From: a virus
Lineage: Duplodnaviria > Heunggongvirae > Uroviricota > Caudoviricetes
DNA: 10,867 nucleotides
IMG/VR virus record: IMGVR_UViG_2537561979_000004
Span: 1 to 10,867 of that record
Strand: one strand, 5' to 3'
A program made the position numbers and the translations under genes. Of the stretch, positions 1-10,867 are shown piece after piece. Position 1 is the stretch's first letter. Each line of letters starts with the position of its first letter. Under the pieces are notes generated by a model. The model was not told where the DNA came from. It was given only the letters and a program-made list of their open reading frames with translations, and ran no database searches.

Positions 1-441
1 GAAGGCTGGCTGTATCTGGCAGTGGTCATTGACCTGTGGTCACGTGCCGTTATTGGCTGGTCAATGTCGCCACGCATGACGGCGCAACTGGCCTGCGATG
101 CCCTGCAGATGGCGCTGTGGCGGCGTAAGAGGCCCCGGAACGTTATCGTTCACACGGACCGTGGAGGCCAGTACTGTTCAGCAGATTATCAGGCGCAACT
201 GAAGCGGCATAATCTGCGTGGAAGTATGAGCGCAAAAGGTTGCTGCTACGATAATGCCTGCGTGGAAAGCTTCTTTCATTCGCTGAAAGTGGAATGTATC
301 CATGGAGAACACTTTATCAGCCGGGAAATAATGCGGGCAACGGTGTTTAATTATATCGAATGTGATTACAATCGGTGGCGGCGGCACAGTTGGTGTGGCG
401 GCCTCAGTCCGGAACAATTTGAAAACCAGAACCTCGCTTAG
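1..441 (+). CDS. insF: IS3 transposase OrfB (DDE integrase domain), C-terminal part; 5' end truncated by the window edge
   Basis: Open frame from position 1 ([20 protein letters not shown]...) to TAG at 439-441. Contains the HTDRGGQY and CYDNA motifs typical of IS3-family DDE transposases. Confidence 0.85.
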
Positions 442-471
442 GCCTGTGTCCATATTACGTGGGTAGGATCA
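1..471 (+). mobile_element. IS3-family insertion sequence, 3' portion (5' part lies outside the window); right terminal inverted repeat ends ...GGCCTGTGTCCATATTACGTGGGTAGGATCA at 441-471
   Basis: The ORF translating to ...[15 protein letters not shown]...[10 protein letters not shown]...[11 protein letters not shown] matches the C-terminus of IS3 transposase OrfB as I recall it. The terminal sequence ending TGATC-complement (..GGGTAGGATCA) matches the IS3 terminal inverted repeat recalled from memory. Confidence 0.85.
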
Positions 472-472
472 G

Positions 473-585
473 TATTCGAACGAATTAAGTCAGGTGTAAG
501 TATAAGTGCCATTGCCCGGGAATTCAAAACCTCGCGGCAAACCATTTTAAGAGCCAAAGCAAAACTTCAGACACCTGACATATAA
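473..585 (+). pseudogene. Orphan C-terminal helix-turn-helix fragment (resolvase/transposase HTH_7-like), 5' end removed by the IS3 insertion
   Basis: Frame immediately after the IS3 end translates to [37 protein letters not shown]-stop, a typical recombinase-type HTH with no N-terminal domain in the window. Assignment by pattern only. Confidence 0.35.
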
Positions 586-682
586 AAAATAATCTCAGTG
601 TGAGATGCTTTACGTCTTCCAAGCCCCCTTCCTTGCCGTAAATGGAAAGATACATCTAATTATAGAATTTATATGTTTTACC

Positions 683-1000
683 CTACGGCAGTGCTGGCCA
701 TTCAATATCCTGTGCAGTTGACGTATCAACACGGTTCAGCAACACCCGATACTTCTTCCAGGCTTCCACCACCAGCACGACAAGATGCCGCATACAGTGA
801 CCCAGTCAGTCCAGTTTCCAGACAACCAGTGCGTCACCTTTTTGAAGGCGCTTTAAAGCACGTTTTAATCCAGGTCGGCCTGTCCTTATTCCGCTTAATT
901 TATCTTCAAATATTTGTTCACATCCTGCACAAACAAGAGCGTTTCGTTGCAGGTCTGTATTCTGGTCATTTGTTGATACCCTTACATAGCCAATCAGCAC
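683..1000 (-). pseudogene. pin: Pin-type serine DNA invertase N-terminal remnant (GTG start at 1000; MLIGYVRVSTNDQNTDLQRNAL...) interrupted by an in-frame TGA at 806-808, then reading into a tail-fibre-assembly C-terminal peptide ([27 protein letters not shown])
   Basis: Minus-strand translation gives about 65 residues of a Gin/Pin/Hin-type catalytic N-terminus including the Ser nucleophile motif YVRVST. After the stop the same frame shows pin-like [12 protein letters not shown], then a conserved Tfa C-terminal motif. The expected invertase C-terminal HTH is absent on this strand. Confidence 0.7.
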
Positions 1001-1054
1001 GCTGAATCTCCCGTCCAAAAGCACAAATCATGCCATGCAGGCCAGAAACCGCCA

Positions 1055-1080
1055 TTATCTAAAACCTCGGTTTACAGGAA
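1055..1080. other. gix/pix/hix-like 26-bp inversion crossover site (TTATCTAAAACCTCGGTTTACAGGAA)
   Basis: Near-identical, by memory, to the Mu gix site (TTATCCAAAACCTCGGTTTACAGGAA; one mismatch). It lies about 55 bp upstream of the pin start, and the tail-fibre variable frame opens right at its centre. Confidence 0.6.
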
Positions 1081-2026
1081 ACGATAAATCAGGCTTCTGG
1101 CGCATTACAGAAAAACCAGAACGGCGCAGATATTCCGGGAAAAGATACCTTCACCAAAAACATTGGTGCCTGCCGCGCATATAGCGCATGGCTGAATATT
1201 GGTGGCGATAGTCAGGTCTGGACAACTGCGCAATTTATTTCGTGGCTGGAGAGTCAGGGGGCATTTAACCATCCTTACTGGATGTGCAAAGGCTCATGGG
1301 CTTATGCAAATAATAAGGTTATTACAGATACAGGTTGCGGAAATATTTGTCCTTGCAGGTGCTGTGGTGGAAGTTATTGGCACTCGCGGCGCAATGACCA
1401 TACGCGTTACTACGCCGAGCACGTCCAGCGGTGGCGGAATTACTAACGCTCAATTCACTTATATTAATCATGGTGATGCTTACGCTCCTGGCTGGCGACG
1501 AGACTACAACACGAAAAACCAGCAGCCTGCATTTGCTTTAGGGCAAACAGGACGCAGGGTCGCAAATGATAAAGCTGTTGGCTGGAACTGGAATAGCGGT
1601 GTTTATGATGCAGATATCAGTGGTGCATCGACATTAATCCTCCACTTCAATATGAATGCGGGGAGTTGCCCTGCTGTACAGTTCCGCGTGAATTACAGGA
1701 ACGGCGGTATTTTTTATCGTTCAGCGCGTGATGGTTATGGCTTTGAAGCTAACTGGTCAGAGTTTTACACCACAACACGCAAACCCTCTGCGGGGGATGT
1801 TGGTGCATATACGCAGGCAGAATGTAACTCAAGGTTTATTACAGGTATTCGCCTTGGCGGTCTGTCATCTGTTCAGACATGGAAAGGCCCCGGCTGGTCT
1901 GACAGGTCAGGTTATGTCGTTACGGGTTCAGTTAACGGAAACCGTGATGAATTAATTGATACAACTCAGGCAAGGCCAATTCAGTATTGCATTAATGGGA
2001 CGTGGTATAACGCGGGGAGTATTTAA
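1069..2026 (+). pseudogene. stf: Variable C-terminal segment of a side tail fibre (Mu S / P2 H-like invertible-cassette type), apparently frameshifted near 1348-1355
   Basis: From the gix site one frame reads ALQKNQNGADIPGKDTFTKNIGACRAYSAWLNIGGDSQVWTTAQFISWLESQGAFNHPYWMCKGSWAYANNKVITDTGCGNIC. The protein then continues only in the +1 frame (LAGAVVEVIGTRGAMTIRVTTPSTS... to TAA at 2024-2026). No constant N-terminal tail-fibre region precedes it. Confidence 0.65.
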
Positions 2027-2028
2027 CG

Positions 2029-2562
2029 ATGATGCACTTAAAAAACATTACTGCTGGCAACCCTAAAACAAAAGAGCAATACCAGCTAACAAAGCAATTT
2101 AACATCAAATGGCTTTATTCAGATGATGGAAAAAACTGGTATGAGGAACAAAAGAATTTCCAGCCAGACACTTTGAAAATGGTCTATGACCATAACGGCG
2201 TTATTATTTGTATTGAAAAGGATGTTTCAGCAATTAATCCAGAGGGTGCAAGCGTCGTTGAATTACCTGATATTACAGCAAATCGCCGGGCTGATATTTC
2301 GGGGAAATGGATGTTCAAAGATGGCGTAGTGATAAAGCGAACTTATACCGAGGAAGAGCAGAGGCAACAAGCGGAAAATGAAAAGCAAAGCCTGTTGCAA
2401 CTTGTCAGGGATAAAACCCAGCTATGGGACTCACAGCTACGGCTGGGCATCATTTCCGACGAGAATAAACAAAAATTAACCGAGTGGATGCTCTATGCGC
2501 AGAAAGTCGAATCTACAGACACTTCCGGCCTGCCAGTAACGTTTCCCGAACAACCAGAATGA
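2029..2562 (+). CDS. tfa: Tail fibre assembly protein (Tfa / Mu U family)
   Basis: 177 aa beginning MMHLKNITAGNPKTKEQYQLTKQF...KNWYEEQKNFQPDT, matching the conserved Tfa N-terminus as recalled. Starts 2 nt after the stf stop. Confidence 0.85.
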   Translation: MMHLKNITAGNPKTKEQYQLTKQFNIKWLYSDDGKNWYEEQKNFQPDTLKMVYDHNGVIICIEKDVSAINPEGASVVELPDITANRRADISGKWMFKDGVVIKRTYTEEEQRQQAENEKQSLLQLVRDKTQLWDSQLRLGIISDENKQKLTEWMLYAQKVESTDTSGLPVTFPEQPE

Positions 2563-2614
2563 GAGAAGGCCCGCTAGACTATCTTTAATTTCTCGCTCAT
2601 ACAGCCTTGCTTTA

Positions 2615-2651
2615 TGAATAAAACGCACCCCAGCAGCCAGTGCTACTGGGG
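2615..2651 (-). terminator. Probable rho-independent terminator downstream of trkG
   Basis: Inverted repeat CCCCAGCAG/CTACTGGGG (2628-2651, one mismatch, 6-nt loop), followed on the minus strand by TGCGTTTTATTCAT. Confidence 0.45.
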
Positions 2652-2737
2652 ACGGAGGTGTTGCTGGTAAAGTTAGGTATTGGATCAATGAGTGAGTCAA
2701 CATAATATTAAACTCACAATTATAAATCAGCCATATA

Positions 2738-4195
2738 TTAGGAGCGCCAAAAAAAACCTGAAAACAATATAATAACAGGATAAATTTCAAGGCGACCAAG
2801 AATCATAGCTATGCACATTAAACATTTTGCAATGTCATTAAGCACTCCGAATGACGATGCAGTAGCCCCAAAACCTAATCCCATATTATTAATACATGCA
2901 GCCACTGTTGCAAATGATGTAAGAAAATCATATCCCATACCATTTAACACCAGTATAAAAAACACCGTGAAGAGAGTATAAAGAAAAAAGAAACTCCATA
3001 CAGACCTCATTACACGATCTGTAACTATCTTCCCTCCTACATTTACACTCAACAACGCTCTGGGATGAGAAAGCTGATTTATCTCGTGTTTGCTTTGTTT
3101 GAAAAGTATAAGAAATCGAAGTGACTTAATTCCACCACAAGTTGAACCTATACATCCCCCAAAGAAACTTGACAACAGCAAAAACACTATCGTGTGCGTG
3201 GGCCAACTTGCATAATCCTGCGTAGCTAAACCATTATCAGTGAGCATGGAGCTGGCAAGAAAAAACGAATGAATAAAACTTCCATGCAAGTCATACATAC
3301 CTATATGCCAGACCTGGAAAGAGGTAACAATGATCACCCCTAAGGCTATTAACAGAAAGAAACGAAGTTCAATATCTCTGATTAAAGGTTTTATCGTTTT
3401 CCTGCTAATAACAATATACCAAAGAGTGAAGTTGAAAGCCGATAGCAGGGAAAAAGAACCAGCCACCAGCTCAACCAAATAGTTATTAAAATATCCGATA
3501 CTCTCGCTATGAGTTGAGAAACCACCAAGCGAAACTGTGGAAATCCCGTGACAAATAGCATCAAACAAAGGCATTCCTGCAAGTCTATAACAGACAATAC
3601 AAGCAATACCTAATAAAGAATAAGTTATCCACAGTGTCCGTGACGTATCGGCCAGGCGGGGAGTGAGTTTGTCATCCTTAAATGGCCCCGGCATTTCTGA
3701 CTGATAAAGCTTTGCACCACCAATACCCAATAATGGCAATACTGCAACCGCCAGAACAATAACTCCTAAACCACCTATAAAATTTAACTGTGACCGATAG
3801 TACAAATATGCCCGAGGTAATGAACTAACATCATCAATTACAGTTGCTCCTGTTGTTGTTATTCCAGAAACCCCTTCAAACAGAGCATCAATGAACCTTA
3901 AATTAAGTTCTGAGTCAATCCATAAAGGGAATGCACTAATAACAGAAAACAAAATCCAAAACATTACAATTATAATAAACCCATCACGGGTACGTAATTG
4001 AATGCCAGATTTCTTAGTTGTATACCACGCTCCGCCACCAATGCAAAAAAATATAACGAAAGTTATAAAGAAAACGAACAGGATTTTTTCTTTATAAAAC
4101 AATGCTACAACCATTGGTGGCAACATTGAAAGACTATAGAGCCAAACCAAGAACCCACACATATGAGTAACAACTCTTACATGAGATGTATTCAT
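2738..4195 (-). CDS. trkG: TrkH/TrkG-family potassium uptake membrane protein (Rac-prophage TrkG type)
   Basis: Long polytopic membrane ORF that matches K-12 TrkG from MNTSHVRVVTHMCGFLVWLY... onward as I recall it. AT-rich composition typical of prophage cargo. An alternative TTG start at 4213 has a better Shine-Dalgarno (AAGGTGG, 6-nt spacing) than the ATG at 4195. Confidence 0.85.
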   Translation of the reverse strand: MNTSHVRVVTHMCGFLVWLYSLSMLPPMVVALFYKEKILFVFFITFVIFFCIGGGAWYTTKKSGIQLRTRDGFIIIVMFWILFSVISAFPLWIDSELNLRFIDALFEGVSGITTTGATVIDDVSSLPRAYLYYRSQLNFIGGLGVIVLAVAVLPLLGIGGAKLYQSEMPGPFKDDKLTPRLADTSRTLWITYSLLGIACIVCYRLAGMPLFDAICHGISTVSLGGFSTHSESIGYFNNYLVELVAGSFSLLSAFNFTLWYIVISRKTIKPLIRDIELRFFLLIALGVIIVTSFQVWHIGMYDLHGSFIHSFFLASSMLTDNGLATQDYASWPTHTIVFLLLSSFFGGCIGSTCGGIKSLRFLILFKQSKHEINQLSHPRALLSVNVGGKIVTDRVMRSVWSFFFLYTLFTVFFILVLNGMGYDFLTSFATVAACINNMGLGFGATASSFGVLNDIAKCLMCIAMILGRLEIYPVIILFSGFFWRS

Positions 4196-4332
4196 ATCTA
4201 AATATTCTTTCAATTATAACCACCTTGCTGCAATATTATGATTATACTGTATAAAATTTAACTCCTCTTAGATCTTACTTCACTGTTCCTTATGAAACAA
4301 TCATCAAAATGAATCATATTGTAGTTAAGATT

Positions 4333-4797
4333 TTACTTTAAACACTGCTCGGTTATGTATTGCTGAGCACCTTCAAGTTGGGCCTGCATCATTACCAGTC
4401 GTTCCCGGAGGGTGAAATAATCCCGTTCAGCGGTGTCTGCCAGTCGGGGGGAGGCTGCATTATCCACGCCGGAGGCGGTGGTGGCTTCACGCACTGACTG
4501 ACAGACTGCTTTGATGTGCAACCGACGACGACCAGCGGCAACATCATCACGCAGAGCATCATTTTCAGCTTTCGCATCAGCTAACTCCTTCGTGTATTTT
4601 GCATCGAGCGCAGCAACATCACGCTGACGCATCTGCATGTCAGTAATTGCCGCGTTCGCCAGCTTCAGTTCTCTGGCATTTTTGTCGCGCTGGGCTTTGT
4701 AGGTAATGGCGTTATCACGGTAATGATTAACAGCCCATGACAGGCAGACGATGATGCAGATAACCAGAGCGGAGATAATCGCGGTTACTCTGTTCAT
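4333..4797 (-). CDS. Rz: Rz i-spanin (lambda Rz-like)
   Basis: [55 protein letters not shown]... closely resembles lambda Rz. Its ATG overlaps the R stop as ATGA (4797-4794). Confidence 0.85.
4392..4577 (-). CDS. Rz1: Rz1 o-spanin lipoprotein embedded in the +1 frame of Rz
   Basis: [52 protein letters not shown]...: lipobox VVGC and a proline-rich stretch, fully nested within Rz as in lambda. Confidence 0.8.
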
Positions 4798-5291
4798 TGC
4801 TGACCCCACAAACAGATTTCACGCTCAATCTCACGACGAGTCATGAGACCTTTCCATTGCTTACCGCCAGCATATGTCCAGCGACGTAGCTGATCACATG
4901 CGCCTTTGATATCGCCCTGGTTTATTTTGCGAAGAAGCGTCGATGTTCTGAAATTGCCAGCACCCACGTTGTAAACGAATGAGTAAAGAGCGCCGCGCGT
5001 TGTTTCCGGTATATCGACTTTGATGTACGGGTTAATTTGTCTGGCGACCGTGGCAAGGTCTTTATTCAAGAGTGTTTTGCATTCTGCTTTGGTATACGTT
5101 TTACCGAGCATGATGTCTTTTCCTGTATGCCCGTGACATACAGTCCATACACCAACAATATCTTTGTATGGTATGTAGCTGACACCTTCCAGACCATCGT
5201 TACCACTTGGGCCAGTGATTAACACTGATGCTATAGCAATTGCTCCGCCACCAATAGCAGCAGCAACGACTTTTCGTAATGATGGAGGCAT
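4794..5291 (-). CDS. R: Phage-21-type SAR endolysin (lysozyme R with N-terminal signal-anchor-release domain)
   Basis: [59 protein letters not shown]...: Gly/Ala-rich N-terminal hydrophobic SAR segment followed by a lysozyme catalytic region. The start overlaps the S stop (TAATG). Confidence 0.85.
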
Positions 5292-5506
5292 TATTCACCT
5301 CTCGCAGCCTTGCGCTTATCTTCTTTAATCTTGAAATAAAGGTTTGTCAGGTACGTCAGCAGGCCAAATACCAGACTACCCAGCACACCGATTGCAGCCC
5401 ACTGTGACGGAGTTACTCTATCGAGCAACTGTAAAAACCAGTAGCCAGCACTGCCTGCGGAGGTGCCGTAGGCAATGCCTGTTGAAATTTTGTCCATGGA
5501 TTTCAT
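5291..5506 (-). CDS. S: Phage-21-type pinholin S with dual-start motif (M-K-S-M)
   Basis: From the ATG at 5506: [71 protein letters not shown] (71 aa, two TM segments, charged C-terminus), preceded by GGAGG. The longer upstream ORF start at 5563 was not used. Confidence 0.8.
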
Positions 5507-5605
5507 AGCCTCACCTCCGCACGGAACGGATGGCATAGTTATTATGTGTAGGCTTTCAGACACATCAATCAGAGCCTTAATTGATATATATGCTGGAGAC
5601 GATGC

Positions 5606-5632
5606 AATATAAAAAGCTCGCCGTAGCGAGCT
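5606..5632 (-). terminator. Rho-independent terminator between the lipoprotein cargo and the S gene
   Basis: Perfect hairpin AGCTCGC-tacg-GCGAGCT (5615-5632 on plus coordinates), followed on the minus strand by TTTTTATATT. Confidence 0.55.
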
Positions 5633-5757
5633 AATAAAATGTATTTCTCTGATATTATGTTTATTTGTATTAGCTCAGACTTGACATCACAGGTTTCGTA
5701 TATAGAACATCATCAAATCTGTCAGTTTGCTATGAATGAGATATAGTAATTGAAGAG

Positions 5758-6153
5758 CTAACCTCGCATGTCAAAGCCAGATTTCTGAAAATCTCTGTAG
5801 ACTTCCGGATTGTTGAAGGCCGGAAATTTGGCTTTATGAGCTGCGGACTTTATCGCTTCGCAATAGGCTTTATCACCGTTACTGGTAGATATTTTTAACG
5901 CCGTGCCATCCTGAGAGAATTCCATATGCAACCTGCATTTTTTCCCTTTCCAGTTATGCGGCTCATCAAGTTTGGCATTAATTGCAGCTCTGATTCCCCG
6001 CGCTTGCGCCCCCCATTCATCCTGATCATCCCAGCGTCCTGAACTGCAACTACCTGTAGCAGTAGTTTTGTGGCAATCTGAAGGGTGTAAAGGTGTGCAT
6101 CCCGCAACAAAACCGACCCAAAAAGTCAACATAACGATTTTCTTTAATCCCAC
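5758..6153 (-). CDS. Lipoprotein with divergent TolA domain-III-like C-terminal module (cargo gene 1)
   Basis: GTG start with GAGGAG upstream. Signal peptide MGLKKIVMLTFWVGFVAGC with lipobox Cys. The C-terminal ~80 aa (...GKKCRLHMEFSQDGTALKISTSNGDKAYCEAIKSAAHKAKFPAFNNPEVYRDFQ...) shares the conserved pattern of the TolA C-terminal domain at lower identity. Confidence 0.7.
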   Translation of the reverse strand: MGLKKIVMLTFWVGFVAGCTPLHPSDCHKTTATGSCSSGRWDDQDEWGAQARGIRAAINAKLDEPHNWKGKKCRLHMEFSQDGTALKISTSNGDKAYCEAIKSAAHKAKFPAFNNPEVYRDFQKSGFDMRG

Positions 6154-6303
6154 TTCTTGCTCCTCAATCCATTAAAATCTCAGCAATAGTAGTTGTTACG
6201 TCCGCCACTGGCTCAGAGCTGACTATCCGCTAAATTTAGCTCAGTGCCGTAGCTGTGTCAGAACAAACCTAAGCCGAAACCGTTTATTACAAAACAATAA
6301 ATA

Positions 6304-6732
6304 TCAGGGTTTAAAATCCAGCACCCCATTTTGAAATACTTTATATACTTCCGGCGAAGGGGGGGCAGGTATATCAGCATTCTTTATCGCATTCATCGCT
6401 TCACGACATAAATCGAGGTCTCCACTTTCTCTTTTAACCTCCAGTAGAAGGCCATTCGGGGCCATATGCATTCTCAGTGTACACTCTTTTCCTGAATACT
6501 TACTCGCATCCCCGAACTGTTTTTCGATGGCGCTCTTGATTTGATGGGCATACAGACGGATATCCTCACTAACATCAGAAGTACGTTCAGATAAACTCAC
6601 ATACTGTGTCTCTATTGCTTTATCGGAGTAATATGATGTACGGTCATGATAATTTGTCGATACAGCATCAGTGCACCCGATAATAATCCCACTAATAATC
6701 AACGTAAGAATTGATGCGCTACGAAAACCCAT
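6304..6732 (-). CDS. Lipoprotein with TolA domain-III-like C-terminal module (cargo gene 2)
   Basis: ATG with GAGG upstream. Signal peptide MGFRSASILTLIISGIIIGC (lipobox). The C-terminal ~85 aa (IRLYAHQIKSAIEKQFGDASKYSGKECTLRMHMAPNGLLLEVKRESGDLDLCREAMNAIKNADIPAPPSPEVYKVFQNGVLDFKP) aligns closely with the TolA C-terminus as I recall it (...QIKSAIESKFYDASSYAGKTCTLRIKLAPDGMLLDIKPEGGDPALCQAALAAAKLAKIPKPPSQAVYEVFKNAPLDFKP). Confidence 0.75.
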   Translation of the reverse strand: MGFRSASILTLIISGIIIGCTDAVSTNYHDRTSYYSDKAIETQYVSLSERTSDVSEDIRLYAHQIKSAIEKQFGDASKYSGKECTLRMHMAPNGLLLEVKRESGDLDLCREAMNAIKNADIPAPPSPEVYKVFQNGVLDFKP

Positions 6733-6761
6733 TTTTCCTCACATATGTCATATAGTAAAGG

Positions 6762-6791
6762 ATTATATATACCGTTGTTTTGGACGCTCAA
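6762..6791 (-). promoter_or_regulatory. Candidate sigma70 promoter for lipoprotein gene 2 (-35 TTGAGC at 6786-6791, 18-bp spacer, -10 TATAAT at 6762-6767)
   Basis: Hexamers read on the minus strand about 30 nt upstream of the ATG at 6732. Not experimentally defined. Confidence 0.4.
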
Positions 6792-6895
6792 ACAGCGAAT
6801 CAGATCAAATAAAACGCACATTTGTTAACATTTACACAAAGTCTGCGTGGGATATTCTGAAAGAATATCCATAATGTGGAGAGAATCTATTGAAG

Positions 6896-7000
6896 TGCAT
6901 GGTGCCGGGTGCCTCCCGGTGAACAAAATGTTCGTGATACCTGTCGGCGACAGAAAAGGTTAATGGTATCACCCCACCGCACAGGGGGATTCACCATGCA
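6896..7000. repeat. 105-bp nested dyad-symmetry element (outer 9-bp inverted repeat enclosing four hairpins)
   Basis: Outer TGCATGGTG (6896-6904) / CACCATGCA (6992-7000). Inner hairpins: CCGGG-tgcct-CCCGG (6905-6919), GAACA-aaa-TGTTC (6921-6933), GTGATACC...GGTATCAC (6934-6972) enclosing the palindrome CTGTCG-g-CGACAG (6941-6953), and CCCC-n8-GGGG (6972-6987). Confidence 0.5.
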
Positions 7001-7320
7001 GGAGTTTTCTTAGCAAACTCACTGCGCGCCCGGCAACTCCCAACCACATAAAATGCGGAGTTTGTGGTATTTATGCATATAACTCGCAGGAATTATCTTA
7101 AAAAACTGATGTCGATCCGGATTAAAAAGAAGCAGGTCATCATCAGATGACTGGAAAAAAGGAAAACAAAAAATACTCATCATACAGTTTTGATTGCAGG
7201 GATGAGCCTGCTATGCACAATATGCAGAATATAAGCAAGATAAAAATATGCAGGCATATTATTTCGGATTTTGTTATTAACACAACCTTTTTAATAATCA
7301 TTTGGCATACAATAAACCAG

Positions 7321-7349
7321 CCCAAAAAGAACCGCCTAAACAGGCGGTT
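7321..7349 (-). terminator. Rho-independent terminator (candidate tR'-like) in the Q-to-cargo intergenic region
   Basis: Hairpin AACCGCCT-aaac-AGGCGGTT (7330-7349), followed on the minus strand by CTTTTTGGG. Confidence 0.5.
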
Positions 7350-7594
7350 GGTCAATACAAAGGATGCTTCGTCTTTATTATAGTAATCTGAGGCGTCGGG
7401 TGTCTTGTATCAGACAACATATTGTCCCGCTAAACAGCGAATTACAAACCACCCTGCAATGATCTCTCATCTCATTTTATATGAGTTGACGACATCAGGA
7501 TAACGCATCATCAGCCCCTGCCAAGAAATATCAAAACTCCCGCCAGCAATGTGTTATCACAATATTGTAAAAAAAACACAGCACCGAAACTATA

Positions 7595-7632
7595 ACTGGT
7601 CTCTGTTATAATTTGGAGCAGAAAGACCAGTT
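7595..7632 (+). promoter_or_regulatory. Extended -10 promoter-like element (TGTTATAAT, 7604-7612) flanked by an 8-bp inverted repeat ACTGGTCT / AGACCAGT
   Basis: TGn-TATAAT on the plus strand, antisense to the late operon. Inverted repeat arms at 7595-7602 and 7625-7632. Confidence 0.3.
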
Positions 7633-7665
7633 GCCCAACTAGCAGCATTCTCCCCTGCTTTCCTG

Positions 7666-7700
7666 ACGTAAAAAAACCGCATTAAGCGGTTTTTTTACGT
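7666..7700. terminator. 35-bp perfect palindrome ACGT-A7-CCGC-ATTAA-GCGG-T7-ACGT; bidirectional intrinsic terminator about 80 bp downstream of the Q-like gene
   Basis: Perfect dyad seen directly in the sequence. The A-tract/U-tract architecture is typical of bidirectional terminators. Confidence 0.6.
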
Positions 7701-7777
7701 ATGTCCATGTCTGCAATCCGCCTCGCGATACAGCTTTGCGAAGCATAGCAAAATTGAAGCAGTTTATACGTAAGAAA

Positions 7778-8320
7778 TCAAGCCATTTTCTCAGCAAATG
7801 ATTCACGCATGGGAATATATAGGGCATACTCAGCAACAGCTAACCAATTAGCAATCCGTTTTTCGCATGTGCTAAAACACCACTCTGGGTGTGCATCATT
7901 TAGCAATTCAGCCATTTTGCGCTTAGTCATCCCCCGCCCTTCATAGCGTTGCCGGAGAATGCAAATCAATCCTGGATGCTCTGCCAGCACCTCACTTATG
8001 ACTCGATCAATACATAACGCCTCTGCATCAGTACAATGCGCCAGCCAGCTCTTTTGCTTGCCGTTGATCATCTCTCGCAAAAACGCTTCCAGCTCAGCTT
8101 TCTCTATTCCCGCTTTTTTCATTCTGCGCAGGGCTTCATTAATGGCTGTTTTCGTCAGTTTTTTGGATGCCAACAACTGATTGAACATATTCCCTGACCT
8201 GCCACCGCCAATATACGACCAGCGCCCCCACATACGTAGTTTTCCCTGAATCCAGACACTTTCCAGCGTGGTGAGGCGAAGGTGTTCTCCGCTTTTTCCT
8301 GTATTCGTTGGGTAAATCAT
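7778..8320 (-). CDS. Putative late-gene antiterminator Q-like protein (family assignment tentative)
   Basis: 180-aa ORF translationally coupled to the upstream gene (ATGA overlap at 8317-8320). It is the last gene of the nin-like block before the lysis cassette, the canonical position of Q. Sequence family not verified. Confidence 0.5.
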   Translation of the reverse strand: MIYPTNTGKSGEHLRLTTLESVWIQGKLRMWGRWSYIGGGRSGNMFNQLLASKKLTKTAINEALRRMKKAGIEKAELEAFLREMINGKQKSWLAHCTDAEALCIDRVISEVLAEHPGLICILRQRYEGRGMTKRKMAELLNDAHPEWCFSTCEKRIANWLAVAEYALYIPMRESFAEKMA

Positions 8321-8607
8321 AAATGACCTTTCTTTCTCCAGATTTCTTGTGTGCGAAAAACCCCTTCAGCATGCATCAGGCGCAATTCTTCTTTGGTGTA
8401 ATCGCTGGTTTTTACCCGCCCGTCGATTAGATCGTGGCATGAGCTACAGGCTATCGCCGCCTGCATATCGTGTGGTTTTGTCGCTGTTCCGCACGTCCCC
8501 GCCAGCCTGTAATGCGCCAGCACAGAGGTTTCGGGATTGTGATTGCAGTAGCCAGGGATTCTGATCTGGCACATCTGGCCTTTAGCCGCTTTACGTAAAT
8601 TCACCAT
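8317..8607 (-). CDS. Small Cys-rich phage nin-region protein (DUF1364 / YbcO-like, putative zinc-binding)
   Basis: 96-aa ORF MVNLRKAAKGQMCQIRIPGYCNHNPETSVLAHYR...CSSCHDLIDGR with four or more Cys in two clusters. TAATG overlap with the upstream gene. Family recalled from memory. Confidence 0.5.
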   Translation of the reverse strand: MVNLRKAAKGQMCQIRIPGYCNHNPETSVLAHYRLAGTCGTATKPHDMQAAIACSSCHDLIDGRVKTSDYTKEELRLMHAEGVFRTQEIWRKKGHL

Positions 8608-9206
8608 TACGCAAACTCCAGTAGTTGTGCGGCCACATTTTCAACTTCCTCCTGAGAGGAGAATTTACGAAACAGAATCCAGTTCCACAGCACATTCAGT
8701 ACAGATTTATAAACCTGCTGAAACTCGACTTCGTCCATATTCGCAAAAGCGATGGATTTTGCCCGACGCCCACGGCTACCGTCCGGATAAATATGCTCGG
8801 TGTAAAATCCGGCCTGAATGGTTACCCACTCGCGGAAAGCCTCAAACGACTTTAGCAACGCCGTATCCCGGGTTCTACGAGTCGCAACGGTGTTAAGGTA
8901 TTGCTCTGCGGCATCACTCAGGGCTGGCGTGTGTTCCCGACCAACTGATTCGCACAGGTAATCAACGAAACCAGACAGCAGTTCTCGTTCGCGAGGCGTG
9001 ATCGCCCCACCGACCGGAGTCCAGTAATCGAATCCCAGTTGCAGGAGTTTGAAAAAACGCTTGTGGAATGCGTAGTTACGCACACGCTTAAAGTCTGCGT
9101 GTATCCACTCACCTATTTTGATTTGATGCAGAAAATCGCAACTCTCCGGCGTCGCCGGGAGAAGTAAACCAGAAGAAGTTTGTTTGACCAGTTGTATATG
9201 CGCCAT
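8607..9206 (-). CDS. Phage nin-region protein (DUF1367-like, resembles Rac YdaW-type proteins)
   Basis: 199-aa ORF, first gene of the coupled three-gene block, with a candidate promoter upstream. Family by recollection and context only. Confidence 0.45.
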   Translation of the reverse strand: MAHIQLVKQTSSGLLLPATPESCDFLHQIKIGEWIHADFKRVRNYAFHKRFFKLLQLGFDYWTPVGGAITPRERELLSGFVDYLCESVGREHTPALSDAAEQYLNTVATRRTRDTALLKSFEAFREWVTIQAGFYTEHIYPDGSRGRRAKSIAFANMDEVEFQQVYKSVLNVLWNWILFRKFSSQEEVENVAAQLLEFA

Positions 9207-9264
9207 TTCTCAATCTCTCGATGGCGCAGCGCAGCAGATGCCAGTTGTTCAGGCTGACGAATAA

Positions 9265-9292
9265 AGTATAAATAAACTGGCTATGGTGTAAA
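9265..9292 (-). promoter_or_regulatory. Candidate sigma70 promoter for the DUF1367-DUF1364-Q block (-35 TTTACA at 9287-9292, 16-bp spacer, -10 TATACT at 9265-9270)
   Basis: Hexamers read on the minus strand about 60 nt upstream of the ATG at 9206. Confidence 0.4.
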
Positions 9293-9486
9293 GCCCCACA
9301 TAGCATGAACAAACACTACATATCAAATAGCTGGTACAAGGATAGAAATACGACATTTATTATTAAAAACGATTAGATAAATTACATTTTAATGTTATGC
9401 AAAAGTTCTTTTTTATCATAACATTTCAATAAAAGCATTACAGATGCAATCATCCCGTCATCATCAATTATTTAAGGTGGTTAAAC

Positions 9487-9573
9487 ATGGAAAATAACAA
9501 GTTCGCACATCTCGCTCCTTTTTTATCCGTAATCCTTTTCGCTTGTTGTTTTATATGGGCATTATTTTTATAA
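9487..9573 (+). CDS. Candidate 28-aa hydrophobic small protein (MENNKFAHLAPFLSVILFACCFIWALFL)
   Basis: Strong Shine-Dalgarno AAGGTGG (9474-9480) 6 nt before the ATG at 9487. Single predicted TM helix. Sits in an otherwise ORF-free AT-rich block. Below the length cut-off of the ORF track. Confidence 0.3.
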   Translation: MENNKFAHLAPFLSVILFACCFIWALFL

Positions 9574-9978
9574 AGTAGCCACATGATAAGTTGCTGGAAT
9601 CATATTTCCCACTCAAGTCATTAACATTTGATAAGATATATCTAAAAGGACGCCTTTACATTATTTATGTGTATATAATTTATTTATATACACAGTAAAG
9701 GTATCCTGGGAAAATATTTATCGTTAAAAAATACATCATAAATAATTAAGCTGAAATTTCAGAACACAACTAATACACACAATAAGGTTCAGTAACAATA
9801 ATCTATGTGGACTACATCGAGATTTTTTGATTAAACTTTAATAACTTATTCCTAACACACAGAATGCATAAACTAAAAGTAAAACAAATAGTTATACAAA
9901 AAACAACCATATTTATTATATCTTCTCCTCTAATCAACATATCAATTATGTGTTTCATAACAGCTTGACATAACCCTC

Positions 9979-10007
9979 AAAAACACGCATTTATAATGCA
10001 TGTTTTT
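9979..10007 (+). promoter_or_regulatory. Promoter -10 (TATAAT, 9992-9997) embedded in an imperfect inverted repeat AAAAACACGCAT-ttata-ATGCATGTTTTT resembling an NsrR operator
   Basis: 12-bp arms with one mismatch. The core AACACGCATTT-a-TAATGCATGTT matches the 11-1-11 NsrR consensus (AAnATGCATTT-n-AAATGCATnTT, recalled from memory) at about 20 of 22 positions. A TTGACA at 9965-9970 is 21 bp from the -10, too far for a canonical -35. Confidence 0.45.
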
Positions 10008-10019
10008 GAGGAGGTGGTT

Positions 10020-10358
10020 ATGACACACAAGAGAATTCCTAAAGATTGGGTAATCAAACGCTCAACTCCGTTCTTCACAAAAGAGAACGTACCTTCAGCG
10101 TTATTAACACATCATAATACAGCAGCAGGTGTTTTTGGGCAGTTGTGCGTAATGGAAGGCACTGTAACATATTATGGTTTTACTGATGAGAATGCTACTG
10201 AACCGGAGATAAAAGTAGTCATTAATGCTGGCGCTTTTGCAACAAGCCCACCACAATACTGGCACCGTGTTGAACTAAGCGATGATGCTCAGTTTAATAT
10301 TAACTTTTGGGTCGCTCCAGACTTCTCGGGCGAAAAAGTCTATAGCACCAAAAAATAG
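10020..10358 (+). CDS. YeaR-like DUF1971 family protein (TehB N-terminal-domain-like)
   Basis: ATG at 10020 with GAGGAGG 6 nt upstream. Protein MTHKRIPKDWVIKRSTPFFTKENVPSALLTHHNTAAGVFGQLCVMEGTVTYYGFTDENATEPEIKVVINAGAFATSPPQYWHRVELSDDAQFNINFWVAPDF... shares the RSTPF...H.T..GV...L.VM.G.V.Y.G...E..EP......AG.FA..PP..WH..E...D..FNI.F.VAP pattern of E. coli YeaR as recalled. Confidence 0.7.
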   Translation: MTHKRIPKDWVIKRSTPFFTKENVPSALLTHHNTAAGVFGQLCVMEGTVTYYGFTDENATEPEIKVVINAGAFATSPPQYWHRVELSDDAQFNINFWVAPDFSGEKVYSTKK

Positions 10359-10387
10359 ATGATCATATTAAAAATGCTTTAACAGTC

Positions 10388-10425
10388 AGACCCGGCAGGG
10401 CTATCCCCGACGGGTCTCATTTTTG
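10388..10425 (+). terminator. Probable rho-independent terminator downstream of the yeaR-like gene
   Basis: Stem AGACCCG / CGGGTCT (10388-10394 and 10411-10417) with an internal GGG-ctat-CCC mini-hairpin, followed by CATTTTTG. Confidence 0.45.
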
Positions 10426-10591
10426 TAAATATATTGGTTCTACATTGACAGGAGACTTCAACCATAAGAAGTAATCTGAATACTTGAGCAATAAATTTAC
10501 TTAAGATTAATGAGCGCACCTTGCCGGACAAAGATAAACCAAGGTAACACCTTTTTTCTAGCCAGTATGTAATCAATCAGAAAGCCGCTCC

Positions 10592-10867
10592 GGTGATGCT
10601 GCCAACTTACTGATTTAGTGTATGATGGTGTTTTTGAGGTGCTCCAGTGGCTTCTGTTTCTATCAGCTGTCCCTCCTGTTCAGCTACTGACGGGGTGGTG
10701 CGTAACGGCAAAAGCACCGCCGGACATCAGCGCTATCTCTGCTCTCACTGCCGTAAAACATGGCAACTGCAGTTCACTTACACCGCTTCTCAACCCGGTA
10801 CGCACCAGAAAATCATTGATATGGCCATGAATGGCGTTGGATGCCGGGCAACTGCCCGCATTATGGG
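10592..10867 (+). mobile_element. IS1 insertion sequence, left end (GGTGATGCTGCCAACTTACTGATTTAGTGTATGATGG...), continuing beyond the window
   Basis: The left terminal inverted repeat and the following 276 bp match IS1 as recalled, with at least one substitution (CAACTGCCC here versus CAACAGCCC as I recall it). Confidence 0.9.
10647..10867 (+). CDS. insA: IS1 InsA (5' portion; 3' end outside the window)
   Basis: GTG start at 10647 reading [74 protein letters not shown]. The 10618-10830 ORF in the track is the wrong frame of the same DNA. Confidence 0.85.

Follow-up and report, generated by a model that had tools for sequence, protein, structure and literature searches.

The 10,867-nucleotide (nt) stretch of viral DNA analyzed here (IMG/VR record IMGVR_UViG_2537561979_000004, positions 1 to 10,867; hereafter the window) is the right arm of a Rac-type lambdoid prophage. 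Our analysis centers on an AT-rich block that lies between a nin/Q-type operon headed by a DUF1367 gene and a gene of the DUF1971 family, and that very likely carries, judging from the comparisons below, a new, widespread and unannotated small membrane-protein gene on a mobile prophage cassette. The nearest public match to the window is from Shigella flexneri, with a DUF1367 protein that is 100% identical and a block that is 99.9% identical, and many E. coli are also 99.9% identical to the block. GC content is 0.25-0.36 over positions 9151-10050, compared with 0.45-0.53 in the genes to the left, and in agreement with the initial annotation of this region no open reading frame (ORF) of at least 60 codons lies inside 9207-9995. 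A minus-strand ORF at the left edge (9109-9312) is the sole one of that size to overlap the block, and nine further ORFs of 25-48 codons overlap or sit inside it. The region is gene-free up to the yeaR-like DUF1971 gene, as had been proposed, but its end has to be moved from 9995 to 10019, as the RefSeq start of that gene is the ATG at 10020 rather than 9996. Downstream of DUF1367 the operon continues with YbcO and then the Q-like DUF1133 gene, and the setting of the block within a prophage upholds the suggestion that this DNA was horizontally acquired. An ATG at 9487 behind the Shine-Dalgarno (SD) sequence AAGGTGG, opening a 28-codon hydrophobic ORF, is read in the sequence as first described. 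Coordinates are collected in Table 1.

Table 1. Genes and sequence features in and around the AT-rich block
Feature	Position	Strand	Details
TrkG, Rz, lysozyme, holin, two TolA-C-domain genes, Q-like DUF1133, YbcO, DUF1367		minus	left of block
DUF1367 gene, first of nin/Q-type operon	8607..9206	minus	Pfam PF07105, E=6e-98; same gene in RefSeq, E. coli strain 165
Conserved hairpin GUCAG-CCUGAACAA-CUGGC	9240..9258	minus	at or near predicted 5' end of nin-operon transcript
Sigma-70-like nin-operon promoter (predicted)	9265..9292	minus	-35 TTTACA (9292..9287), 16 nt, -10 TATACT (9270..9265)
Mobile small-ORF cassette	9333..9574	plus	core 9357-9574 common to all copies
Nearly invariant A/T-rich segment, non-coding	9357..9390	plus	invariant or nearly so in 10 representatives, ~25% divergence
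Inverted repeat AATGTTATG-n17-CATAACATT	9391..9425	plus	arms invariant; 17-nt center diverges, length constant
SD AAGGTGG of small ORF	9474..9480	plus	6 nt before ATG
Small ORF encoding MENNKFAHLAPFLSVILFACCFIWALFL	9487..9573	plus	28 codons, 87 nt, ATG 9487, stop ends 9573
AT-rich spacer travelling with DUF1971 cassette	9575..9964		window-type and L003-type copies only
Perfect palindrome TGTGTATATAA-n5-TTATATACACA	9668..9694		11+11 bp
NsrR-type 11-1-11 operator candidate AACACGCATTTATAATGCATGTT	9982..10004		overlaps TATAAT 9992-9997
DUF1971 gene, yeaR paralogue	10020..10358	plus	Pfam PF09313, E=3e-26; SD GAGGAGG 10008-10014
DUF1971 gene, then IS1			right of block

The case that the small ORF is coding comes from comparison of its copies. 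In a sample unbiased with respect to the ORF, for which metagenome loci were picked via a non-coding, invariant 40-mer of the cassette (66 usable loci, 22 distinct sequences), the 87-nt ORF was intact in 66/66 loci. Variable sites were distributed 8/10/19 over codon positions 1/2/3 (p = 0.002), and we counted 21 synonymous and 23 non-synonymous variants where 21% synonymous was expected (p = 7e-5). The ORF had no indels and 43% variable columns, compared with four length classes and 68% variable columns in the adjoining 5' untranslated region (UTR). When the window was compared with the copy at locus L007, amino-acid changes were fewer than substitution at random would produce at that divergence (p = 0.015). 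The ORF was also intact in 38/38 cassettes adjoining DUF1367, and its exact 28-codon length was found in every copy with enough readable sequence. Clades differ at 15-18 of 81 nt with every readable copy intact, and SD, start codon, length and stop are all retained in alignments of diverged copies, in which homology ends 1-2 nt past the TAA. AAGGTG (AAAGTG in one clade) was retained in all cassette representatives. Another sample, drawn with a back-translated peptide pattern, was biased to synonymous change and was set aside for the 40-mer sample. No ORF antisense to the small ORF is conserved; a 38-codon minus-strand candidate at 9468-9584 was rejected, stops closing its frame in other clades. 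These results show that the small ORF, its SD and its exact length have been kept under purifying selection, and the probable explanation is that a mobile cassette carries a genuine gene whose small membrane protein is translated. Conservation in related genomes, which the initial annotation had set as a check on this ORF, was found in the 40-mer sample and at the DUF1367 loci; the cassette itself is carried by 1176 of 5426 genomes (see below).

Several observations weigh against this interpretation. An earlier, smaller sample, whose loci were found via the SD and the N-terminus, gave 6/8/9 variable sites at the three codon positions, which was not significant (p = 0.59). The clades are only ~20-25% diverged and the family was found, in the searches made, only in Escherichia and Shigella; because the family is narrow and its divergence low, the selection tests rest on few independent changes. 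A consensus scan upstream of the small ORF returned zero plus-strand promoters, and a position weight matrix (PWM) scan of the plus strand gave weak candidates of 1-6 bits (TATTAT at 9358-9363 and TAACAT at 9419-9424). We found no terminator belonging to the cassette, the downstream terminators belonging to neighboring cargo genes, and the predicted small-ORF mRNA is no more structured than shuffled sequences (z = -0.55).

The product is predicted to consist of a polar 8-residue N-terminal head and one transmembrane helix reaching the C-terminus. Mean Kyte-Doolittle hydropathy over residues 9-28 is ~2.4-2.5 in every clade, and all variants retain M-E/G-N-N, His8, Pro11, Ser14, Cys21, Trp24 and a ~20-residue helix to the C-terminus. 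Translated from its strong SD, the peptide would span the inner membrane with its one helix and leave the MENNK head on the cytoplasmic side. Size and hydrophobicity alone are unremarkable, as the block has other short ORFs and T-rich codons specify Phe, Leu and Ile; the small ORF stands out only by its SD sequence together with the comparative evidence. Searches of Pfam, NCBIfam and PHROGs at E up to 10 with two peptide variants gave nothing but chance-level matches of 0.2, an exact-sequence look-up of six variants in a collection of 15 billion proteins found none of them, and the peptide string was not found in the searchable literature. Nor is any feature annotated under the small ORF in the ~125 E. 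coli matches listed, which, taken with the evidence of purifying selection, bears out the suggestion that a small protein has been missed here. The K-12 inner-membrane proteins YohP, YpdK, AcrZ and MgtS, which were found by conservation and ribosome profiling in E. coli K-12, are similar in having fewer than 50 codons, a good SD, a single helix and a synonymous bias and in having been missed by annotation. Unlike them, the small ORF lies on a mobile prophage cassette rather than at a core-genome locus, and is absent from K-12.

The ORF is the payload of a unit with a GC content of ~0.29. The left limit of homology is at ~9357, or at ~9333 in window-type and L173-type copies. Megablast of the block against 5426 complete E. 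coli genomes gave three classes of match: at least 99% identity over the whole block, ~94% identity with an insertion, and a third class of 366 genomes that matched query positions 1-368 only, at 76-78% identity. The span of this third class runs exactly from the DUF1367 start to the small-ORF stop codon. Beyond the stop the neighbors vary, being IteAS, a nuclease with a cytosine methyltransferase (Dcm), Hok/Gef, KilA-N or the DUF1971 spacer. Because the neighbors past the stop differ, the insertion site is the cargo hotspot that separates the nin module from the replication module (DUF977). Among 74 closely related IMG/VR loci found via DUF1367 alone, the cassette was present in 38 and entirely absent from 36. 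A sensitive blastn search detected it in 1176 of the 5426 genomes (~22%), with 1171 full-length copies.

Three genomic contexts were found: upstream of DUF1367, upstream of a different nin operon, and at the prophage end. In CFT073 the cassette lies between hokD and a different nin operon (92-aa ORF, DUF968, RusA, Q), the small ORF being at 1346808-1346894 of NZ_CP051263.1 on the minus strand, and the K-12 Qin prophage is without exactly the cassette found in CFT073. A diverged lineage occupies the prophage end, beside tail-fibre genes and the host yebY side. In 65 of 69 copies the cassette is 65-90 nt from the nin promoter. A tblastn search in phages and plasmids returned E. coli copies only, and a search via DUF1367 in one genome per species did not find the cassette linked to DUF1367 outside Escherichia/Shigella. 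Overall, comparison of these loci shows that the cassette is gained, lost and moved as a unit. Like phage morons, it is an optional insertion at a junction of conserved modules, it is carried by some close relatives and missing from others, and its base composition deviates from its surroundings. In E. coli SCU-316 (L002 2562-3682), ISSen4 splits DUF1367 and the adjacent cassette is intact.

The non-coding part of the cassette contains two conserved elements. The nearly invariant A/T-rich segment may be a promoter or a 5' UTR. The inverted repeat next to it could be an RNA hairpin or back-to-back promoter elements, and two arm substitutions give G-U pairs on the plus strand. Searches for an RNA partner or a regulatory fold were negative: there was no conserved antisense promoter in the cassette (the PWM scan gave weak minus-strand promoter-like sites only), no conserved hairpin with a U-tract and no stable antisense hairpin on its minus strand, no conserved fold masking the SD, and nothing relevant from Rfam in the block at the gathering threshold or at E up to 10. 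A second NsrR-like site at 9368-9390 (13.7 bits) was rejected, its matching bases not being conserved in other clades.

The block is not the single spacer that had been described but a mosaic, at the junction of three modules. The first (9240-9292, minus strand) would comprise a promoter-like site and a covarying 5' hairpin heading the nin/Q operon; the second (~9333-9574, plus strand) would be a self-contained moron-type cassette of ~220-240 bp, with the 28-codon gene as payload; and the third (9575-10019) would consist of an AT-rich spacer and, at its end, an NsrR-type operator that overlies the -10 of a yeaR paralogue.

In the first module, the predicted nin-operon promoter matches the consensus at 10/12 positions and is the best conserved promoter candidate in the PWM scan (8.9 bits). 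Salmonella, Citrobacter, Pantoea, Serratia and the K-12 prophages Qin and DLP12 all retain a TATAAT-like -10 at 4-7 nt before the hairpin, which is consistent with 9265-9292 acting as the promoter of the operon. The 65 nt upstream of DUF1367 are conserved across genera, with everything further upstream differing, and contain in order the TATAAT-like hexamer, 4-7 nt, the UGAAC-loop hairpin, a conserved leader and the SD sequence. Pairing in the hairpin is kept by at least 10 different stem sequences around the invariant UGAAC loop core, among them GUCAG/CUGGC, GCCAG/CUGGC, CAGGU/ACCUG, AGCAGGA/UCCUGCU, GCAGGG/CCCUGC and GGG/CCC. In alignment A7, which includes three sequences in a shifted register, 80.8% of cells were paired and both-side changes occurred in 5/6 pairs; its covariation score of 0.454 was matched by 0/500 shuffles, and slid controls reached at most 0.11. 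The G-U pairs are compatible with the nin-sense strand only. Because the hairpin folds weakly in the window's own sequence, its support is comparative. The same element is found in K-12 Qin between rem and ydfU (L260 ~4616-4644) and in K-12 DLP12 upstream of ylcH-ybcN (L331 ~311-338, stem ACCGGAG/CUCCGGU), so that in several genera it stands at the start of nin/Q operons in prophages of the Rac, Qin and DLP12 types. We also noted in K-12 Qin an unannotated ORF (L260 ~4306-4585, minus strand) that begins immediately past the hairpin and SD of the rem-ydfU interval; a 92-aa hypothetical protein is annotated at the corresponding position in CFT073.

The hairpin matched no Rfam family, and two known identities were considered for it. 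Lambda tR2 has the same map position, between the last replication-side gene and the first nin gene, but has a U-tract, whereas the hairpin has none; an intrinsic terminator was rejected because a T-run follows the stem in none of the variants. Comparison with boxA and boxB consensus sequences led us to reject a lambda-type nut site as well, since the UGAAC core sits in a loop of 6-9 nt and a boxA-like CGCTCTT is absent nearby. The hairpin resembles the boxB of lambda and P22 in its short stem and conserved purine-rich loop; it differs from a nut boxB in lacking a boxA and in that its stem does not directly close a GNRA-type pentaloop, and it lies 4-7 nt after a conserved -10-like hexamer. A neighboring hok-family gene has a leader hairpin, probably the Sok-target stem-loop, with a CUGAACACA loop (L010 4761-4785; L035 9146-9170) that resembles the loop of the nin leader. 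The nin-leader loop, YUGAAC, includes the YUNR U-turn motif, and YUNR U-turn loops speed antisense RNA pairing. The similar CUGAAC loop of the Sok target hints at an antisense-target U-turn loop in the nin leader, although it proves nothing. Standing where nin/Q operons begin, the nin-leader hairpin could be an unrecognized point of control over late-gene expression and, in Stx phages, over toxin expression.

In the third module, positions 9710-9965 are ~95% identical among the window, L003 and L073. The spacer of this module has more C than G on the plus strand and no Rfam match. An inverted repeat had been reported within it. Its position stands, but the arms are 11+11 bp with a 5-nt spacer rather than 10 bp with 7 nt. 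A perfect inverted repeat of at least 10 bp occurred in 27/500 dinucleotide shuffles of the block (5.4%), which puts the palindrome only marginally above chance, and it has a mismatch and wobble pairs in L003 and is largely decayed in L073. It is probably not functional, and its spacing misfits the LexA, CRP and Fur consensus sequences. We also noted a second hydrophobic small ORF (9812-9958, minus strand, 48 codons), in which an internal start gives a 32-residue peptide with a basic tail. This ORF is also open in L073, the available copies all being as close as ~95% identity.

The operator candidate at the end of the spacer is the window's best site (20.6 bits) with an NsrR PWM built from 18 published sites (PMC5320621 Table 4), whose training range is 13.8-31.7 bits; its score was reached by 0.1% of shuffles. 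In L003 the box is AAGGTGCATTTATAATGCATGTT, which is nearer the consensus, and the longer flanking palindrome is broken there. The DUF1971 protein is 41% identical to K-12 YeaR, and the K-12 yeaR-yoaG operon is NsrR-regulated (PMC5320621). K-12 yeaR carries its own NsrR box 47-69 nt upstream of the ATG. Both loci thus combine a DUF1971 protein with an upstream 11-1-11 NsrR-type box, whereas the prophage paralogue lacks yoaG and has its candidate box over the -10 hexamer, 16-38 nt from the ATG. By this likeness to yeaR-yoaG, the third module would be a nitric-oxide-inducible moron.

With regard to what the peptide does, the small ORF points opposite to the nin operon and against early-rightward (lytic) transcription of the phage. 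Because of this orientation, we infer that the gene is active in the lysogen and that converging transcription silences it once the prophage is induced. The peptide would then most likely benefit the prophage as a small membrane effector; it might, for instance, modulate a membrane protein of the host or exclude other phages. Orientation and location make this the reading we prefer, although as a specific role it is guilt by location and less probable than not. The location is a hotspot in which the cassette neighbors IteAS, a nuclease with Dcm, Hok/Gef and KilA-N. Lysogen-expressed morons such as lambda bor and lom and HK97 gp15 are likewise optional inserts of deviant composition oriented against lytic transcription, and the cassette resembles them in being present or absent among otherwise near-identical phages. 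It differs in being much smaller (~220 bp, 28 codons), and the scans gave no convincing promoter or terminator of its own. The composite account, with three modules, a gene and an effector role, seems to us on balance a credible description of the block.

The main alternative to an effector is toxin-like, membrane-damaging action, in which the peptide would be the toxin of a new type I toxin-antitoxin system restrained by a small RNA, antisense or divergent, that the conserved upstream part of the cassette would encode. A type I toxin had been named by the initial annotation as one kind of peptide this could be, and the small, hydrophobic, single-transmembrane character it relied on is there, but the likeness stops at resemblance. 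The small hydrophobic E. coli toxins (ShoB, IbsC, TisB, ZorO, DinQ, Hok/Gef) are also under 60 residues with one transmembrane helix, are encoded in toxin-rich chromosomal or prophage hotspots, occur in narrow taxa and have long conserved upstream regions. In size and shape the peptide, with its polar N-terminus and hydrophobic C-terminal end, resembles ShoB and the Ibs-type toxins, and the narrow distribution of the family fits. The hotspot also carries Hok/Gef, known near the cassette from annotation, and in K-12 Qin hokD and relBE; moreover, ~130 nt are conserved upstream of the ORF, including the invariant stretch and the inverted repeat, and weak minus-strand promoter-like sites lie within them. 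However, the peptide has no sequence similarity to those toxins and no match to a toxin family in Pfam, NCBIfam or PHROGs, Rfam gave no match, and no antitoxin RNA, conserved antisense promoter, terminator, stable antisense hairpin or SD-sequestering fold was detected. The strong SD is unsequestered by conserved structure, unlike that of typical type I toxin mRNAs, and because the cassette ends 1-2 nt after the stop, the conserved unit could not accommodate an antisense promoter 3' of the ORF. We therefore regard a type I toxin as unlikely, if worth keeping in view.

Less likely again, to the point of being improbable, is that the function of the conserved unit resides in its DNA or RNA, for example in a regulatory region or small RNA tied to the nin promoter, with the ORF incidental. 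The most conserved stretch of the cassette is indeed non-coding (9357-9425), nearly all copies lie at the 65-90 nt from the nin promoter given above, and the scans identified no promoter for the small ORF. The excess of synonymous and third-position changes is not expected on this account, nor are an exact ORF length without indels beside a UTR that has them, a conserved SD and ATG, and homology that stops at the stop codon. The cassette also occurs with an intact ORF away from any nin promoter, and neither an Rfam match nor a significant fold was found.

A functionless chance frame in an AT-rich, H-NS-bound spacer, kept only through the recency of its copies, we consider very improbable. Many ORFs of similar length lie in the block, T-rich DNA gives hydrophobic codons and most copies are close relatives. 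Yet all readable copies remain intact across the divergence between clades, the flanking UTR is far more variable and has indels, the substitution pattern is non-neutral in both tests (p = 7e-5 and p = 0.015), and the unit has kept its boundaries on moving from one context to another, unrelated one. Finally, a leader peptide attenuating a downstream gene, as might be suggested by a short ORF with a strong SD on the same strand upstream of DUF1971 in the window, is effectively refuted by its variable and often convergent downstream context (iteS, hok, the DUF1971 spacer or tail-fibre-side DNA), homology ending at the stop, with 446 nt to a DUF1971 gene that has its own candidate operator and -10 and no terminator/antiterminator pair found.

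Returning to the membrane-protein gene, approximately 1 in 5 E. coli/Shigella genomes would, if the peptide is made, carry an unannotated membrane protein. Its place in a prophage hotspot of toxins and anti-phage systems would recommend it as a low-cost candidate in the search for new exclusion factors or toxins, and it would show how genes of fewer than 30 codons escape gene callers. A broader and more speculative proposal, doubtful as a whole, joins two novelties: a new family of 28-residue prophage membrane peptides in ~22% of E. coli, expressed in the lysogen as a type I toxin, a phage-exclusion factor or a host-modulating factor, and a new cis-acting YUGAAC-loop RNA hairpin that would control entry into the Q-antiterminator operon via an RNA or protein partner.

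Elsewhere in the window, the interval separating the lysis region from the Q-like DUF1133 gene contains a match to the STnc100 small RNA (6843-7029, minus strand, 86.6 bits); by analogy with lambda 6S RNA, this may be the short leader RNA made from the late promoter. The holin and the Q-like gene flank two adjacent genes with a TolA C-terminal domain (5758-6153 and 6304-6732, minus strand), which resemble morons and could interfere with Tol-dependent colicin or phage entry. After the DUF1971 gene, the left end of IS1 with insA occupies ~10600-10867, where E. coli strain 165 has a major facilitator superfamily (MFS) transporter gene; the prophage edge in the window's genome is remodelled by an insertion sequence element.

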